From an uncultured Chloroflexia bacterium (GTDB lineage: Bacteria > Chloroflexota > Limnocylindria > Limnocylindrales > CSP1-4): DNA of 64,000 nt. The translations under genes were made by a program, and so were the position numbers. The notes under the pieces are model-generated. The model had not been told where the DNA came from. It saw only the letters and a list, made by a program, of their open reading frames with translations, and did no database searches. Below, piece after piece: positions 15,181 through 64,000 of the stretch; the stretch's first letter is position 1; every line of letters begins with the position of its first letter. The DNA lies in NCBI GenBank assembly GCA_963766735.1, contig CAVYBU010000006.1, forward strand, positions 128,001-192,000. Reading direction: 5' to 3'.

Positions 15181-15257
15181 TGGTACCCCCAAGGGGATTC
15201 GAACCCCTGATCTCCACCTTGAAAGGGTGGCGTCCTAGGCCTCTAGACGATGGGGGC
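15181..15257 (-). tRNA. tRNA-Glu(TTC)
   Basis: Reverse complement GCCCCCATCGTCTAGAGGCCTAGGACGCCACCCTTTCAAGGTGGAGATCAGGGGTTCGAATCCCCTTGGGGGTACCA: cloverleaf, anticodon TTC, T-loop GTTCGAATC, encoded CCA. Confidence 0.97.
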
Positions 15258-57929: not shown

Positions 57930-58247
57930 TCCCAGATAAGTCGCGGGTGAGCGGCGCGCGGCACCATGCCGCGCATGCCTGCGACGACCCATGGCTCCGA
58001 CCGCCACGGAGCCAGATCCAACCACCCAGGGCCAACCGCCCGGGTTCCCGGGCACCCGCCGCTGGGCGGCCGGGTTGACGCTGCCGATCCCGCATCCCTA
58101 TCGTTCGCGCCATCAGACGGCGCCGCTACCGGCAGCAGTTCCCGGCCGAACCCGTCGACGTCAGGGCACGAGGGACATGCGCTGGTCGCGGTCGGGCCTG
58201 GGATCGCAGGTTCAATGCTGTTCGCGGGACCGATCGGGCGGCTGGGG

Positions 58248-61200
58248 ATGAACCCGCTGCCGATCCAGCCGGCGAAGATCCACCCGCCGCTGCTCCGCCA
58301 CGATGTCCTCTCCCGAGAGCGCCTCAACGGCTGGCTGGACAACGCGGCGAACGGGCGCGTCGCGCTGGTCATCGCCGAGGCCGGGTTCGGCAAGACCACG
58401 TTCCTTGCGGACTGGGCGCGCCACACCCGACGCGCAACGGCGTGGTACCGCCTGGAACCGGATGACCGGGACTGGCTCGCCTTCATCAGGCATCTGGTCG
58501 CAAGCGGCCGGGAGATCGACCCCGGGTTCGCTCCGGATACCTACGACCTGCTGGCCGCACTGGGGCCAGGTGGTCCGTCCAGGGATGACCTGATCGTCAG
58601 CGTCGCCCAGGAGATGGCCGAACTCGCATCGTCGCTGCCCAACGGCCTGAGCCTCCTGTTCGACGACTACCACTCCGTCGACGGCAGCCCCGAGACCGAG
58701 CCCGTCATGAAGGCCCTGGTCGATCGAACGGGACCCGAATTCTCCCTGGTCATCGCGTCCCGGGCGGCGCCATCGCTCGCCCTGGGCAGGCTGCGCGCCC
58801 GCGGCGCCCTCTCGCGGATCGACGGCGACGGCCTCTGTTTCGACGTCCCCGAGACGGAGCGCCTCTTCCGGGATGCCTACCACCAGCCCCTGGACGCGGA
58901 CGTGGTGGTGGACCTGATCGCCCGGACGGAAGGCTGGGCCGCGCTCCTGTCGCTGGTCCACACGAGCCTTGAGGGCCGAGCGGCCGTCGAGGCTCGCGGG
59001 CTCGTCCGGCACCTGTCGGGCGCTCGCGGCGACATTCGTGACTATCTCGCCGAGGAGGTTCTCGACCACCTTGCTGATCATCTTGCTGACTTCTTGGTGC
59101 GCGCTTCGATCCTCGATGTTGTCGGGCCCGAGTCTGCGGCGCTACTTGGGATCGGCTCCAGAGATGAGTGCGTGGCAATGATCCGAGACGCCGCTGGCCT
59201 TGGTCTTTTGGTCGAGATCACGACGGGTGATGGCCACAGGTTCGTTCCGCTCGTTCGCGAGTACTTGTCCGCCCGTCTGAGCCGAGAAGAGGGGTGGGCC
59301 GCGATCCGCGATGCCCACATGATGCTGGGTGCGCACTACGTCGACTCTGACTGGAGGCTCGCCGCTCATCACTATCGCGCTGCGGGGCAGCCGAGTTTGG
59401 CAGTCCAAGTCATCCAGAACTCCCTGAGCACCATCCTCGGCAGCGGACAGTACCGAGCTGCAGCTGACCTACTCGCCGGTTCCGACGAACTCGTCGTAGG
59501 CGAGGTCCTTCGCTCACGACTCTTGCTACAAGTCGGCGCGGTCGCCGAAGCCCGATCCGCGTCGAGTTCCGCAGTCGCTGCCGCAGCATCGCACCGCCCA
59601 GCCGACCAATCGCTCGCTCTGCAGAACGCCGCAACGATCTCTCTGGTGTCTCGTCAGTACGAGGAAGGTCTCAAATACGCCGAAGAGGCGGAGGCGGCAG
59701 CCACCGACAGGTGGGAAGGGGAGCTCGCCCGGGCTCATGTCGCTCTGCTTGGCGCATCGGGAACTGGGAGCCTTCCGGCCCTGGTGCACCAACTTGAGCG
59801 CCTTCTGGGCGTCCAGCGCAAGCGGGCCTACTGGCATCACGCCGCCATCACAAGCCTCAACCTTGCTCAGGTCCTGGTTTGGCTGGACCGAGACACGGAA
59901 GCGCTGCGACATGCAGCCGACGCTGAAGAATTCCTGACCCGGTCATCCCAAGGCTATGAGTTGGTTTCCGTCAAGCTGGCGCAGGCTCACGCCGAGGCGC
60001 ACCTCGGTCACTGGTGCGCAGCGCAGGCACTACTCGAGACCTCAGTTCAGACAGGCCACCCCGAGGGACAGGCTGAAGCGGTTCTAGACGCGGCAGGACT
60101 TGCTGCGTGGTTCGGGCCGAACGATCTCCCAGCGCGAATCCTGGCTCAGGTTCGGCGCGAGTCCCTCCCGTCCAGCTGGAAGGCACATTGGCGTATCGTC
60201 GATTTGTGGCTTGAGGAAGAGTCGCAGCGGCGGTCAGAGATCCTCGATGAGTTGCGGGCCGATCCGCCCCCCTCACTGGAGGTGGGGGCGGCATTTCGAT
60301 GGCACTACACGAAGGCCAGGGCCTACCACGCTCAAGGGGATGCCAAAGGGTTCGACGACGAGATCGCGCGGGTTGACCAAGTCTGCCAACTCCAACGCTC
60401 ACCGGTCGAGGAGCGGCTTCAGGCGTTGCTCCGTGGGGTCGCATCAGGACCACAGCATCTGTCGAGGGTGATTGAGTCTTGGAGTCCGGCCTCCGCCCCT
60501 CTGATTGGGGTACTCGCGTACGAGGTCGCGGGCCTCCTAGGCTCCCTATCCGATGACGCCGCCGCTGCGGTTGGTCGTGCCGTGGCAGGTGCCCCATACA
60601 GATGGCGACGACCTCTGAGGGTCATGCTCGAGAAGGCCGGCCCGGCGCGACACCTGGACCGTATTGCACAACTGCTTGAGGAGATCGGCGAATCGGCCGA
60701 TGTTCAACTGCTTCGCGAGTACGGTCGTAGGTCGAAACGCGCGCGCGGAAACTGGGGCGAGGACTTGGGGCGACGACTCGCCCCGAGGGCGTTCATCGAG
60801 GATCTAGGCCCGATCTCGATCATCATTGGTGATCGCGTGATCGACGGGCGAGGAATCCGCCGCAGAGTCCTCGGCCTTCTTGCCTTTCTGATTAGCCAGC
60901 CCAACGGATCAGCAACGCCCGACCGCGTCATGGATGCACTGTGGCCTGAGTTGGACCCCGGGCAAGGGAGCAACTCGATCCACCAGACCATCTACTTCCT
61001 TCGGCGCGTGATCGACCCAGACTACCGGGCAGGCGTCTCTCCCGAGTACGTGCACTTCGATAGTGAGGTGATCTGGCTCGATCGGGATCTCGTGCAGTGC
61101 AGGAGTTGGCGCTGTCAGGCTCTCCTAGGCAAGCGCGCCCTCTCGCCATCAGAGGTCGACGAACTCGTCCGGGACTACTGCGGGCGGTTCGCGGCCGAGT

Positions 61201-61493
61201 TCCCGTACGAGGACTGGGCGTCGGACTATCGGGACCATCTACATGCGCGCTACCTGGGCGAGATCGAGAAGGTCCTCTCAGAGCCTCGTCATAGTCCAGA
61301 CCTGCGATGGAGATTATGGGTCGGCCAGCGGGCGCTTTCGGTCGATCCTGAAGCCGATGCGGTCGAGGCTCACGTGATCCGGTTGTATCGCCGACTTGGG
61401 GCGTCTGCCGCCGCGGCAGAGCAGTACGGGCACTACTCGACCGTCATGAGAGACCAGCTCGGCGTCGAGCCCCCTGGGATCGAGGACCTCTGA
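58248..61493 (+). CDS. Large MalT-like AAA ATPase - TPR - wHTH/BTAD transcriptional regulator
   Basis: KIHPP..R...RERL, Walker A AEAGFGKTT, LFDDYH, TEGWAA, DYLAEEV; helical TPR-like middle; LLAFL...DALWPE...LRRV wHTH and BTAD-like end. Confidence 0.88.
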   Translation: MNPLPIQPAKIHPPLLRHDVLSRERLNGWLDNAANGRVALVIAEAGFGKTTFLADWARHTRRATAWYRLEPDDRDWLAFIRHLVASGREIDPGFAPDTYDLLAALGPGGPSRDDLIVSVAQEMAELASSLPNGLSLLFDDYHSVDGSPETEPVMKALVDRTGPEFSLVIASRAAPSLALGRLRARGALSRIDGDGLCFDVPETERLFRDAYHQPLDADVVVDLIARTEGWAALLSLVHTSLEGRAAVEARGLVRHLSGARGDIRDYLAEEVLDHLADHLADFLVRASILDVVGPESAALLGIGSRDECVAMIRDAAGLGLLVEITTGDGHRFVPLVREYLSARLSREEGWAAIRDAHMMLGAHYVDSDWRLAAHHYRAAGQPSLAVQVIQNSLSTILGSGQYRAAADLLAGSDELVVGEVLRSRLLLQVGAVAEARSASSSAVAAAASHRPADQSLALQNAATISLVSRQYEEGLKYAEEAEAAATDRWEGELARAHVALLGASGTGSLPALVHQLERLLGVQRKRAYWHHAAITSLNLAQVLVWLDRDTEALRHAADAEEFLTRSSQGYELVSVKLAQAHAEAHLGHWCAAQALLETSVQTGHPEGQAEAVLDAAGLAAWFGPNDLPARILAQVRRESLPSSWKAHWRIVDLWLEEESQRRSEILDELRADPPPSLEVGAAFRWHYTKARAYHAQGDAKGFDDEIARVDQVCQLQRSPVEERLQALLRGVASGPQHLSRVIESWSPASAPLIGVLAYEVAGLLGSLSDDAAAAVGRAVAGAPYRWRRPLRVMLEKAGPARHLDRIAQLLEEIGESADVQLLREYGRRSKRARGNWGEDLGRRLAPRAFIEDLGPISIIIGDRVIDGRGIRRRVLGLLAFLISQPNGSATPDRVMDALWPELDPGQGSNSIHQTIYFLRRVIDPDYRAGVSPEYVHFDSEVIWLDRDLVQCRSWRCQALLGKRALSPSEVDELVRDYCGRFAAEFPYEDWASDYRDHLHARYLGEIEKVLSEPRHSPDLRWRLWVGQRALSVDPEADAVEAHVIRLYRRLGASAAAAEQYGHYSTVMRDQLGVEPPGIEDL

Positions 61494-61587
61494 TCCAGCT
61501 GGTCGCGCCCGGCGACGAATGGGCGAGCGAGCGTGTCGGTATTGGCTTCCGAGTGGGCGGCCCGGTGGGCATAGGTAGGGTTGCGTA

Positions 61588-61649
61588 TTGACCGGTGTAG
61601 TCCGCCGTGCATATAGTCCGGCCCTGCACCAGTACTTTCGTACGGTGCA
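61588..61649 (+). promoter_or_regulatory. Putative promoter with direct repeat and inverted repeat upstream of peptide genes
   Basis: TTGACC-18-TATAGT; TAGTCCG x2; TGCACC-A-GTAC-TTTC-GTAC-GGTGCA. Confidence 0.5.
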
Positions 61650-61795
61650 CCAAGGAAACGCTTGGACGCGCTGATGCCACCACCTGAAATGGGCACTTAG
61701 GGTGGAGGCGGAGCGAGTAGTGCAACCGACCGGCTTTCGAGTCAGGTCGGTTTTCGTGTTCCCGGCGGACACGGAGGCCGCAAGGAGGTACGAGC

Positions 61796-61828
61796 GTGGC
61801 ACCGAGCAAGGGCCTCAAGGGCTGGTAG
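61796..61828 (+). CDS. Putative 10-aa micropeptide MAPSKGLKGW
   Basis: Strong SD AAGGAGGT 6 nt before GTG; TAG stop; C-terminus resembles the tail of the next peptide. Confidence 0.5.
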   Translation: MAPSKGLKGW

Positions 61829-61854
61829 GACCAGGATCGCGGGAGGATCGACCG

Positions 61855-61944
61855 ATGAAGGATCGCCTCATGCGACTCCTGGCCACTCTCGGCGCAGTCG
61901 CCGCATTGGCGCTCGCCGGAGGCGCGTCGCTAAAGGGCTTCTAG
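61855..61944 (+). CDS. 29-aa signal-peptide-like precursor MKDRLMRLLATLGAVAALALAGGASLKGF
   Basis: GGGAGGA SD; basic n-region, hydrophobic h-region, LAG-G, short tail. Confidence 0.75.
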   Translation: MKDRLMRLLATLGAVAALALAGGASLKGF

Positions 61945-62029
61945 AAGCAGGCAAGGGCCTCAGTACACAAGTCCTCTTCACTTGTGGGTCGAAGGGGCTA
62001 GAGTCCCACCGTTCGGGAACTGAGGACGA

Positions 62030-63394
62030 ATGCCGACAAAGCTGAAGCTCTACATTATTGGAGTCGTAGCGACGAGCGCTATCGCGCTCGCTGCTACGAC
62101 TCGTTTGATTCCAGTCGAGGACGGGGTTGCCCTGACTGTGGGGCCGTTCGGATCTCTCTCGACTCAGGCAGGCCTCGCATTCTGGTGTGCGGTGACCCTG
62201 ATCGCGTCCGCGCTTCCCGTCCGAATGCCTCGCGGAACCATGGTGGGCGTTTCGATCGCGCCGCTGATTGCGGCCACGGTCCTGGGCGGTCCGACTGCCG
62301 GAGCCTGGGTCGCGCTCATCGGGACGACGGAGGTGCGTGAGCTGCGCGGCCGTGTTCCGTGGTACGGCTCGCTGGCCAACCACGCCGGGCTGATGATCCC
62401 CGCGATGGTGGCCGGCATGGTCATGCGAGTACTCGGCGTCCCGGGGAGCGAGGAGTACGCGATCACCTTCATCGCGGCTCTGATCGGTGCGGCCGCCTTC
62501 TTCCTGGTCAACGCGACGCTCACCGCTGCCGCGGTGGCCCTCCAAACTGAGCAGCCATTTCGCAGCGTGTTGCTGGGCGACGCCAAGGTCTTCGCCACGA
62601 ACCTAATTGGGCTTGCCCCGCTCGCTTGGCTCATGGCCCAGATGTACGAGGTAGCTTGGTGGGCGAGCTTGCTGTTCGCCGTTCCGCTCTACACGACGCG
62701 GCTCGCGTACCACAACATCATCGAGATGCGCGAGATGTTCACTCAGACCATCACCGCGCTGGCTGGGGCCGTGGACAAGCGCGATCCGTACACCAGCAAG
62801 CACTCGTGGCGGGTCAAGGAGATCGCAGGCGATATCGGACGGGTCATGCGCCTGGGCGAGAGTGACCTCGAGGCCCTCGAATGGGGCGGCCTGCTGCACG
62901 ACGTGGGCAAGATCGGCGTGCGGGACGCGGTGCTGCTCAAGCAGGAGAAGCTCAACAAGGAGGAACGGGCGCAGATGAACGCGCACCCGGTCCTCGGTGC
63001 GGAGATCATCGCGCCGGTGACGCGGCTGTCCCGGGAGCTGCCGATCATCCGCCACCACCACGAGTGGTACAACGGCTCGGGGTACCCGGACCGGCTGATC
63101 GGGGACGAGATCCCGCTGCTGGCACGCATCCTTCACGTCGCGGACGCCTTCGAGGCGATGACCGCCGCCCGGCCATACCGGATGACGCCGCTGACCTCGG
63201 AGCAGGCACTGGGCGAGCTGCGCAAGTTCGCCGGCGTCCAGTTCGATCCCAAGGTGGTGGACGCCTTCGTGAAGACAGACTGGGCCCAGGATGTGGCCGA
63301 CCCGGGCCGGACGGCGCAGGCGCGACCGATCCCGCTGATCTCGCAGCACGCGAACCGGACGGCCAACGCCGTTGCCACTCCCGACGCAACCTGA
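62030..63394 (+). CDS. Membrane-sensor (MASE-like, about 7-8 TM) HD-GYP c-di-GMP phosphodiesterase
   Basis: N-terminal TMs; DKRDPYTSKHS, LHDVGKIG, HHHEWYNGSGYP, ADAFEAMT..RPYR, QFDP. Confidence 0.92.
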   Translation: MPTKLKLYIIGVVATSAIALAATTRLIPVEDGVALTVGPFGSLSTQAGLAFWCAVTLIASALPVRMPRGTMVGVSIAPLIAATVLGGPTAGAWVALIGTTEVRELRGRVPWYGSLANHAGLMIPAMVAGMVMRVLGVPGSEEYAITFIAALIGAAAFFLVNATLTAAAVALQTEQPFRSVLLGDAKVFATNLIGLAPLAWLMAQMYEVAWWASLLFAVPLYTTRLAYHNIIEMREMFTQTITALAGAVDKRDPYTSKHSWRVKEIAGDIGRVMRLGESDLEALEWGGLLHDVGKIGVRDAVLLKQEKLNKEERAQMNAHPVLGAEIIAPVTRLSRELPIIRHHHEWYNGSGYPDRLIGDEIPLLARILHVADAFEAMTAARPYRMTPLTSEQALGELRKFAGVQFDPKVVDAFVKTDWAQDVADPGRTAQARPIPLISQHANRTANAVATPDAT

Positions 63395-63503: not shown

Positions 63504-64000
63504 ATGCTGATCGGCGGTATCGCGCTCGGGCTGGTGCTCGGTCTGCTCCTGGGCGGGCGCCTGGAGAACCTGGCCGGCATCCGGCTGCGCTTCCTGCCGC
63601 TGCTGTTCGCGGCGGTGATCCTGCGGTTTGCGACGGAGGCGCTGCTCGGGATGGGCGTCGAGGTCGTGGACCTGCTGCGCGTGCCGCTGCTCGGAGGCGC
63701 GTACGGGCTCCTGCTCTTCACCCTCTGGCACAACCGCTCGTACCCGGGCCTGGCGCTGGCCTTCATCGGGATCGCGTCCAACACCCTGGTGATCGTGTGG
63801 AACGGGGGCTGGATGCCGGTGTGGCAGCCCGCCTACGACGCGTCCGGGCTGGCGGGACCGCTCTACTCGCAGCTCCACTTCCCGATCAGTGGCACCGGCG
63901 CCGAGTTCCTGGTCCACCTGGGCCCGCTGGCGGACGTCGTCCCGTTCCCCATCCCACCGCTGCAGAACGTCGCCTCGGTCGGTGACCTGTTCCTGACGGC
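63504..64000 (+). CDS. DUF5317-family membrane protein, 3'-partial
   Basis: Translated by hand: MLIGGIALGLVLGLLLGGRL.NL..IRLR...N..VI..NGGWMPV...LADVVP...SVGD; runs off the window. Confidence 0.85.
   Translation, partial: MLIGGIALGLVLGLLLGGRLENLAGIRLRFLPLLFAAVILRFATEALLGMGVEVVDLLRVPLLGGAYGLLLFTLWHNRSYPGLALAFIGIASNTLVIVWNGGWMPVWQPAYDASGLAGPLYSQLHFPISGTGAEFLVHLGPLADVVPFPIPPLQNVASVGDLFLT

Follow-up and report, generated by a model that had tools for sequence, protein, structure and literature searches.

A conserved 29-codon gene between a c-di-GMP-II riboswitch and a membrane HD-GYP phosphodiesterase in Limnocylindria

The window analyzed here is a stretch of 64,000 nucleotides from the genome of an uncultured bacterium of the class Limnocylindria (Chloroflexota). 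Near its end lies a 29-codon open reading frame (ORF), termed small ORF 2 (sORF2), which starts with ATG at 61855, stops with TAG at 61942-61944 and encodes the 29-aa peptide MKDRLMRLLATLGAVAALALAGGASLKGF. On the same strand, sORF2 is preceded by a promoter-like site, a class-II riboswitch for cyclic di-guanosine monophosphate (c-di-GMP) and a 10-codon micro-ORF, and is followed by a folded spacer and the gene for a membrane HD-GYP c-di-GMP phosphodiesterase (Table 1). Our results show that the peptide gene is real, conserved, linked to the riboswitch and locked to the phosphodiesterase, and that the arrangement is maintained throughout one class of uncultured soil and sediment bacteria, the Limnocylindria.

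In its own genome (3.62 Mb, 35 contigs), the canonical riboswitch family RF01786 has two copies, one of which lies in the window. Above the cut-off (a gathering score of 53.5 bits), RF01786 was found in 26 of 61 genomes (the window's own and 60 relatives), all of them in the window's genus, and in none of 24 small genomes of a sister family. An intact 29-codon homologue of sORF2 follows the aptamer by 111-119 nt in 23 of the 27 canonical riboswitch loci of the genus; among the remaining four, three carry frameshifts, in assemblies in which the next gene is fragmented too, and one runs into a contig end. Of the 29 codons, 19 vary at position 1, 13 at position 2 and 26 at position 3 across the 23 genus sequences (22 distinct), and the ratio of nonsynonymous to synonymous polymorphism (pN/pS) is 0.25. 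In the same set every wobble base occurs in the A-G-G-A-S codons without any change of residue, and the stop codons vary. In an alignment of 45 sequences from three families, G22, G23 and A24 are invariant, the tail is the best-conserved part of the peptide, and the hydrophobic composition is retained while the sequence drifts. The length of the ORF stays within 28-32 codons across the three families. A peptide profile search found no sORF2 paralogue elsewhere in the window's own genome.

Judged by the codon-position pattern, the pN/pS of 0.25 and the A-G-G-A-S motif with its free wobble bases, sORF2 is a real gene that is translated and under selection. High-GC DNA is rich in spurious ORFs (83 of at least 20 aa in 6 kb), but a chance ORF in a GC-rich 5' untranslated region, from which no peptide is made, is very improbable here: it is opposed by the same pattern and pN/pS, by a start, ribosome-binding site, length and stop conserved over three families, and by amino-acid identity held across non-adjacent Ser codon families, and the free third-position variation speaks against RNA structure over all 87 nt as the cause.

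A collinear copy of about 11 kb of the window's contig (C6:184974-197621) was observed on a second contig, C10 (16.4 kb), with 95-99% identity. In this copy the riboswitch and the 29-codon ORF are identical, the spacers have small indels and the phosphodiesterase frame is broken. Contig C10 represents either a co-binned second strain or a recent duplication.

Table 1 Features of the sORF2 locus in window coordinates
Feature	Coordinates	Strand	Description
STAND-type regulator gene	57966..61493	+	1175-aa frame; AAA_16 1.8e-4, helical middle, Trans_reg_C 1.3e-3, BTAD 8.6e-5 (SARP-type DNA-binding end)
Promoter-like site	61588..61617	+	TTGACC-18 nt-TATAGT; 10/12 matches; shuffles average 0.1 sites
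5' leader hairpin	61625..61649	+	GTAC-N4-GTAC core; minimum-free-energy fold; between promoter and aptamer
c-di-GMP-II riboswitch aptamer (RF01786)	61655..61738	+	59.5 bits, E 1e-10, full model 1-84
Expression platform	61724..61761	+	Terminator hairpin AACCGACCGGCU...GGUCGGUU and U-rich tract; terminator-like site 61728-61752 plus TTCGTGTT
Micro-ORF Shine-Dalgarno sequence	61782..61788	+	AAGGAGG; conserved in genus alignment
Micro-ORF	61796..61828	+	10 codons, GTG start, (M)APSKGLKGW, stop TAG; tail ...LKGW resembles sORF2 ...LKGF
Small hairpin around micro-ORF stop codon	61822..61834	+	CUGGU-AGG-ACCAG; from the fold
sORF2 Shine-Dalgarno sequence	61841..61847	+	GGGAGGA; 7 nt before ATG; GGAGGA conserved in genus alignments
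sORF2	61855..61944	+	29-codon ORF; signal-peptide-like or single-span membrane micropeptide
Structured spacer	61945..62029	+	85 nt, conserved in blocks across the genus
Membrane HD-GYP c-di-GMP phosphodiesterase gene	62030..63394	+	454 aa, MASE9-like N-terminal domain; HD_5 1e-37
DUF5317-MFS fusion gene, start	63504..64000	+	719 aa, extends past the window; DUF5317 6.7e-20

To describe the distribution of the module, we refer to families of the class Limnocylindria as f1 to f4, to genera by g-numbers and to loci by L-numbers. At E<=0.01, a profile of the genus peptides matched 156 of the 401 Limnocylindria genomes (81/137 in f1, 49/153 in f4, 24/92 in f3 and 1/16 in f2). The genome tallies of this search, and those of the enzyme and MASE9 searches below, take in a few genomes flagged unpublished, whose sequences went unused. 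A reading made earlier from the sequence of the window alone (the sequence-only reading) had proposed that homologous short ORFs be mined; this was done, and homologues were found across the class. All 20 distant hits examined (17 in f4 and three in f3) are homologues of 25-32 codons, which end in ...LA[LI]AGGAS[LFI][KR]GW in f4 and in ...LAGGAG.NGF in f3. A membrane ORF of 440-530 aa starts about 35-130 nt after the sORF in each of these 20 loci, and the three such ORFs that were Pfam-scanned all contain HD_5 and MASE9, two of them above the MASE9 cut-off. The riboswitch RF01786 lies just upstream in 17 of 17 f4 loci (all E<=2.2e-6, 11 above cut-off) and, at E<=0.01, in none of the three f3 loci. 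The pair of sORF and enzyme persists in f3 without riboswitch and micro-ORF.

In a sample drawn from the whole phylum, a broader profile of 45 sequences matched 28 of the 46 Limnocylindria genomes and none of the 354 genomes from other families. Among 80 loci retrieved via the enzyme, whose record titles name Candidatus Limnocylindrales/Limnocylindria or Chloroflexota metagenome-assembled genomes, the sORF stands at the same place in 71, and four of the nine misses are without upstream DNA. Several genera have no profile match yet have the enzyme: g5 (14/14), g6 (3/3), g10 (3/3), g15 (4/4), g24 (6/7) and g17 (8/8, counted with a MASE9-domain query). A diverged hydrophobic ORF of 28-32 codons with a GG-centred motif lies 23-82 nt before the enzyme gene in 12 of 12 loci from these genera, and 10 of the 12 have a c-di-GMP-II-type match. 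The peptide-enzyme pair is the constant of the module, and the riboswitch is usual, not universal.

Two loci of g17, L204 and L205, have no RF01786 match at E<=0.01. Another conserved leader, UGCCUUC...GUAC-N4-GUAC...GAAGGCAGGGCAC, takes the place of the aptamer there; this may be an aptamer that has diverged strongly, or else another sensor placed over the same tiny ORFs and enzyme.

The peptide consists of a basic n-region (MKDRLMR), a hydrophobic stretch (LLATLGAVAALALA), A-L-A, GG and then ASLKGF. The translation agrees exactly with the sequence-only reading, which had described a 29-aa ORF with a basic n-region, a hydrophobic core and an LAG-G-ASLKGF end, and the anatomy it gave (a basic N-terminus, a short hydrophobic core, A-x-A and GG, and a short conserved tail) stands. 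What it had overlooked, namely the riboswitch, a second micro-ORF and a phosphodiesterase linked to the peptide gene, alters what the peptide is about; the structured spacer over the enzyme's ribosome-binding site had also escaped it. The two precedents for cleavage that it invoked, the lipobox and the double-glycine leader, both fail. A lipobox, L-[AS]-[GA]-C, needs an invariant Cys at +1 for lipidation, and none of the 45 homologues has it: the window reads L-A-G-G there, all 45 aligned sequences have Gly at 22 and 23, and the Cys is also absent from that position in the 12 diverged copies, which rules out a lipoprotein signal peptide. In double-glycine leaders, the consensus runs through conserved hydrophobic and acidic positions up to a final GG, and a mature peptide follows. 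No such consensus is present in sORF2: the 21 residues before GG are basic and hydrophobic, the acidic positions are absent and merely 6 residues follow GG, so that a double-glycine leader is also ruled out. No C39-peptidase ABC exporter was found among the Pfam-scanned neighbours (the STAND/SARP regulator, the HD-GYP enzyme, the DUF5317-MFS protein, two family-less ORFs and a DUF4143 ATPase); the rest of the genome was not searched for C39.

By eye, the peptide has the features of a signal peptidase I substrate, namely a basic n-region, an h-region within the usual range of about 7-15 hydrophobic residues, and small residues at -3 and -1 before GG. The residues before GG are ALA, AIA, VLA or ILG in the families. 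Since the small residues at -3 and -1 are conserved, processing by signal peptidase I or within the membrane is possible. The hydrophobic stretch comprises about 14 residues up to A-L-A, or 19 if GGASL is counted in, which places it on the border between signal peptides and membrane spans. The data are explained at least as well by a single-span membrane peptide that stays uncleaved as by a cleaved pheromone.

The peptide has no family in Pfam or NCBIfam, where its sole match (NAGPA, E 0.23) is noise. An ESM Atlas search with a 32-aa homologue from f4 returned only unnamed clusters of 29-32-aa "hypothetical protein", and public gene calls that include the sORF2 peptide label it merely "hypothetical protein".

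The promoter, the leader and the riboswitch were compared across the genus. In an alignment of 25 loci, the -35 element is invariant and the -10 element is TATAGT in 20; the five variants are TATTGT (two), TAGAGT, TAAAGT and TAGTCC. The leader hairpin GCAC.AGUAC-N4-GUAC.GGUGC is kept across the genus with a varying loop. In the ligand-free fold, a terminator (61724-61752) takes the conserved 3' strand of the aptamer, AACCGACCGG, as its 5' arm. The outer helix of this terminator is common to f1 and f4, and the inner stems differ. Because terminator and aptamer compete for the same strand, the riboswitch is predicted to be a transcriptional ON switch with read-through at high c-di-GMP.

Outside the window, the same genome contains at least 11 distinct riboswitches of the c-di-GMP-II-GAG type (RF03169; L003-L010 on contigs C2, C3, C7 and C8). 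These score 55-77 bits against a cut-off of 40, and merely 28-45 bits on the canonical RF01786 model. Several stand in tandem gene arrays on contig C7, and most precede an ORF for a secreted- or lipoprotein-like product. The only other above-threshold Rfam match in the window is a tRNA gene (RF00005, 63.5 bits) at 15184-15257 on the minus strand.

The micro-ORF between riboswitch and sORF2 recurs in 63 f1 and f4 loci with a length of 8-10 whole codons and a K-x-W/F end. Its start, ribosome-binding site and tail are fixed and its middle is variable. It was not found in the three f3 loci, which are without the riboswitch. The last five residues of the micro-ORF and sORF2 products are identical in 11 of 111 distinct pairs and differ at one position in 5. 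In tail-matched pairs the Ser codons often come from different families (AGC versus TCN), and thus the match is held at the peptide level and not by DNA copying. The final residues of the two products are W/F in 79 pairs, W/W in 22 and F/F in 8. Tail identity averages 1.99 of 5 residues, compared with 1.80 for shuffled pairing, a small excess that is inflated by relatedness. The penultimate residue often differs between the two peptides, and strict co-variation of the two tails as a general rule was rejected after the pair comparison.

The micro-ORF stops are TAG in 51 and TAA in 12 of the 63 loci, with no TGA, compared with 72% TGA for the long open frames of the genome. A rule that the micro-ORF never stops with TGA is broken by L195 and L197 of another genus. 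The stop codon of the micro-ORF is surrounded by a small hairpin in the window; in f4 a counterpart is seen by eye at the same place, where GGGCUGG pairs with CCAGCCC. In L196 (g5), a 27-nt unit stands three times in frame in the micro-ORF region (…ERINKPW repeated), about 100-200 nt upstream of the sORF.

Downstream of sORF2, the sequence CCUCAGU (61958-61964), 14 nt past the stop, is complementary to the phosphodiesterase ribosome-binding site ACUGAGG (62019-62025). In an RNAalifold analysis of 18 genus sequences, each of the six pairs between this anti-Shine-Dalgarno element and the Shine-Dalgarno sequence (anti-SD:SD) is standard in 16-17 of 18, with nearly no covariation; the inner helix of the spacer has 2 compensatory changes. 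RNAalifold on the spacers of other f1 genera gave merely 4 pairs, and we do not claim long-range helices there. The spacer also contains a TAGAGT box (61999-62004), and f1 and f4 share a conserved TAGAGT/TAGACT box some 30-40 nt ahead of the enzyme start. This box may serve as a -10 promoter element or belong to the RNA fold. As a candidate second promoter, TTCAC-N16-18-TAGAGT has a spacing of merely 16 nt in the window, and in the genus its box also pairs with a conserved box upstream. In the f3 loci L087-L089, G+C-rich hairpins and T runs resembling terminators lie between the sORF stop and the phosphodiesterase gene.

In four RNA libraries, each from a different study, assembled contigs span 61636-61952 or more, and neither tiny ORF is disrupted in them. 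One near-identical contig covers 61664-61952 (289 nt, 1 mismatch), further near-identical ones cover 61636-61761, 61778-61871, 61842-61951, 61654-61828 and 61775-61925, and a more distant one covers 61567-62006. Differences among the contigs include A17S and A10G in sORF2. The contigs are consistent with transcription from the predicted promoter through the terminator. In the 20 sequencing runs with the stretch, it was present in small shares only (0.05-0.14), which point to no particular habitat. No near-identical contig of the phosphodiesterase body or of the end of the upstream gene was found in four runs, except for short, loose-ended conserved pieces, and this is not evidence of differential expression. 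Contigs of two studies end at 61951/61952. The DNA just past the sORF2 stop is the most variable among relatives, and this variability alone can break assemblies.

Upstream of the promoter, a STAND-type regulator with a SARP-type end is encoded on the same strand, and all 4 f4 loci and all 3 further f1 loci tested have a gene of this type upstream, likewise on the same strand; the f4 proteins also have TPR matches. The frame in the window opens with about 100 Pro/Gly/Ser-rich residues and AAA_16 begins at residue 118; the true start codon is probably further in. In L087 (f3), a divergent LuxR/GerE-type regulator takes the place of the SARP-type one. The protein encoded after the phosphodiesterase (L090:105-2261) combines DUF5317, MFS_1 and MFS_3.

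We then propose, tentatively, that the sORF2 peptide is a membrane-resident single-span partner of the membrane sensor of the phosphodiesterase and provides c-di-GMP feedback, a reading that we favour although it could well prove wrong. The leader RNA would start at the promoter and pass the riboswitch. At high c-di-GMP, the 3' strand of the aptamer would be engaged, the terminator would not form and transcription would run on. The RNA would then encode the 10-codon micro-ORF, the 29-residue peptide, the folded spacer and the membrane HD-GYP phosphodiesterase with its MASE9-type sensor. The fold of the spacer suggests that ribosomes finishing sORF2 probably help to expose the masked ribosome-binding site of the enzyme. 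Given its basic N-terminus, its hydrophobic core of 14-19 residues rich in small residues, its A-G-G-A-S motif and its short neutral tail, the peptide is predicted to insert with the N-terminus in and the C-terminus out. It would stay in the membrane and act on the sensor domain of the adjoining phosphodiesterase. In this way, rising c-di-GMP would induce a small modulator of its own breakdown, a feedback of the MgrB-PhoQ kind. In this model, we infer the topology, that the peptide stays uncleaved, which partner it has and in which direction it acts.

We favour a membrane partner because the gene pairing is unbroken over three families, even without riboswitch and micro-ORF, because the helix is rich in small residues, and because the authors who described MASE9 argue for ligand binding within the membrane (bioRxiv 10.1101/2021.11.05.467447). 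Proteins of Clostridioides difficile (PMC13724677) set an experimental precedent for small membrane-associated products encoded behind c-di-GMP riboswitches. However, several observations weigh against it. The MASE9 match (PF20972) of the window's enzyme scores 23.4 bits (E 6.4e-5), just below the cut-off of 24.3; among orthologues, L071 (26.0) and L077 (27.8) pass and L087 (21.7) does not. The anti-SD:SD helix is almost invariant, so that covariation gives it no support, and the RNA libraries may hold DNA. The core before A-L-A/GG has about the 14 residues of a signal peptide, and the small -3 and -1 residues conserved in all three families fit processing as well. The best-conserved part of the peptide is the tail beyond the would-be cleavage site, and the hydrophilic 10-mer, which is unable to sit in the membrane, bears a similar tail. 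The last five residues of the two products can be identical despite different Ser codon families, which points to a reader of free tails and not to helix-helix contact. A complex prediction with the peptide and enzyme residues 1-240 (45-row alignments) gave a score of 0.01 against a mark of 0.32 and weighs neither way.

One alternative, which refines the pheromone proposed in the sequence-only reading, is that the peptide is a processed signal; we regard this as doubtful but worth serious attention. Signal peptidase I or an intramembrane protease would cleave the 29-mer at A-L-A|G-G or close by, and the C-terminal 6-8-mer, (GG)ASLKGF, would be active. Its sensor would be the MASE9 domain or, following re-import, the upstream, TPR-bearing STAND regulator, and the 10-residue product would be an intracellular or MFS-exported analogue, acting as agonist or competitor, much as the tiny SHP, XIP and iCF10 precursors of Firmicutes work. 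The n-region, the 14-residue h-region and the small -3 and -1 residues are conserved in three families, and conservation is strongest at and after the putative cut, at G22, G23 and A24. The separate 9-10-mer is about the size of the would-be mature peptide and has a matching tail under peptide-level selection (AGC versus TCN). The tails vary by genus (KGF, RGF, RPF, RVF, KGW, KSW and NGF), as pheromone types do. A STAND regulator with TPR matches and a fusion with an MFS_3 transporter of the "secretion effector" type are the conserved neighbours, and the terminator-like hairpin of f3 directly follows the sORF, as after many precursor-peptide genes. However, the peptide has neither a Cys nor a double-glycine leader, a C39 exporter is absent among the neighbours tested, and Eep, PptAB and Opp genes were not seen in the locus, although no search was aimed at them. 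We know of no precedent for Sec export of a 29-mer with an 8-residue passenger, which also counts against such a signal. The match at the penultimate residue is inconsistent (KPW with RGF, KGW with RVF), the excess in tail identity over shuffled pairing is small and inflated by relatedness, and in some genera the tail (GPV, RLV or HLL) has lost its basic and aromatic residues.

It is unlikely, but conceivable, that both tiny ORFs encode leader peptides that act mainly in cis. Here the K/R-x-W/F-stop tails would slow termination and the paused ribosome would melt RNA structures at or after each stop. Translation of sORF2 would be coupled to the micro-ORF, and that of the phosphodiesterase to sORF2, with a logic like that of ermC, SecM, MifM and SpeFL on top of a riboswitch. 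The two ORFs stand in series on one leader, each with a strong ribosome-binding site; a hairpin encloses the micro-ORF stop codon; and 1-14 nt past the sORF stop begins either the anti-SD or the 5' arm of a long-range helix, in or beside the footprint of the terminating ribosome. The ribosome is also the one reader certain to see both tails, and the bias of the 63 micro-ORF stops towards TAG and away from TGA, which dominates in long frames, fits such a role. Nevertheless, the whole peptide is under purifying selection with a membrane-type composition, which an arrest motif does not need. The f3 sORF survives without riboswitch and micro-ORF and with a terminator-like hairpin before the enzyme gene. 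The tails vary among genera although the ribosome tunnel hardly does, and TGA stops do occur in the micro-ORFs of L195 and L197. Moreover, a 29-residue chain is still inside the ribosome at termination, which precludes sensing of the insertion force.

It is also tempting to speculate that the module is a riboswitch-gated two-peptide signalling system, though we consider this a long shot. A cytoplasmic 10-mer and a membrane-targeted 29-mer, both produced on a rise in c-di-GMP, would share the same exposed or released tail, which would be read by a lineage-specific receptor (the MASE9 sensor outside, the TPR part of the STAND/SARP protein inside, or both). If true, the module would convert a second messenger into a peptide signal able to pass between cells. 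It would then be a pheromone-type circuit in Chloroflexota and would provide the first ligand for a MASE9 domain.

We did not find the module described in the literature searched, whose coverage did not extend to subscription journals and supplements; the nearest case is the CD1980.2 family of Clostridioides difficile (PMC13724677, Nat Commun 2026). According to that report, these are small membrane-associated proteins encoded directly behind c-di-GMP riboswitches that had been overlooked or called hypothetical. They have 58 aa, a predicted four-helix bundle and a C-terminal hydrophobic helix. Their genes occur in multiple copies behind class-I riboswitches that are OFF with c-di-GMP, have a role in sporulation and have no adjoining phosphodiesterase, and the authors state that no homologues exist outside C. 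difficile (PMC13724677). In both cases, a tiny membrane-type protein behind a c-di-GMP riboswitch links the second messenger to a downstream process. Compared by description, the present case differs in having a 29-aa peptide with a 10-codon companion, a class-II riboswitch predicted to be ON, a single copy beside a MASE9-HD-GYP enzyme, and a host from another phylum.

Small membrane regulators such as MgrB (with PhoQ), SafA (PhoQ), AcrZ (AcrB) and MgtS (MgtA) have fewer than 50 residues and one hydrophobic helix, are induced by their own pathway and contact a larger membrane protein. To our knowledge, none of them is controlled by a riboswitch, shares its tail with a second micro-ORF or is aimed at a c-di-GMP enzyme. 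The sORF2 peptide has no sequence relation to these regulators, and its contact with the enzyme is putative.

The pheromone precursors of Firmicutes, namely SHP (Rgg), ComS/XIP (ComR), PrgQ/iCF10 and iAD1 (PrgX/TraA), are 17-25 residues long and nearly all signal-like, with a hydrophobic stretch after a basic N-terminus and with the active 7-8-mer at the C-terminus. They adjoin a repeat-domain regulator, and similar peptides compete for one receptor (cCF10/iCF10). The mature peptides are hydrophobic and end the hydrophobic stretch; Eep cuts them out, PptAB carries them outside and Opp brings them back in, and they bind regulators of the RRNPP type. The sORF2 peptide is of similar size (29 aa), but its tail is polar and basic, its processing is putative and its host belongs to another phylum. 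Its neighbour is no regulator of the Rgg, ComR or PrgX type but a STAND ATPase of 1175 aa that has Trans_reg_C/BTAD and TPR-like repeats.

As a c-di-GMP-II riboswitch, the element is conventional in having an above-cut-off, full-model aptamer and a terminator platform that overlaps its 3' strand. Examples in the literature searched directly control pili, adhesins, ribozyme splicing or signalling enzymes. In contrast, the first two genes controlled here are micropeptide ORFs, and the ligand-degrading enzyme comes third, with its ribosome-binding site masked. It is an unusual arrangement for two micro-ORFs with related tails to stand in series ahead of a masked ribosome-binding site. Annotation pipelines miss sORF2 or call it hypothetical, and the 10-codon ORF is below the limit of every gene caller.

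Together, our results extend the control of tiny membrane proteins by c-di-GMP riboswitches from one Firmicute, with class-I OFF switches, to a second phylum, a second riboswitch class and an opposite, predicted sign. In most lineages, the messenger destroyed by the enzyme is also predicted to switch the peptide gene on. MASE9 and most membrane sensor domains of c-di-GMP enzymes have no known ligand, and the sORF2 peptide is a concrete candidate for what MASE9 senses.

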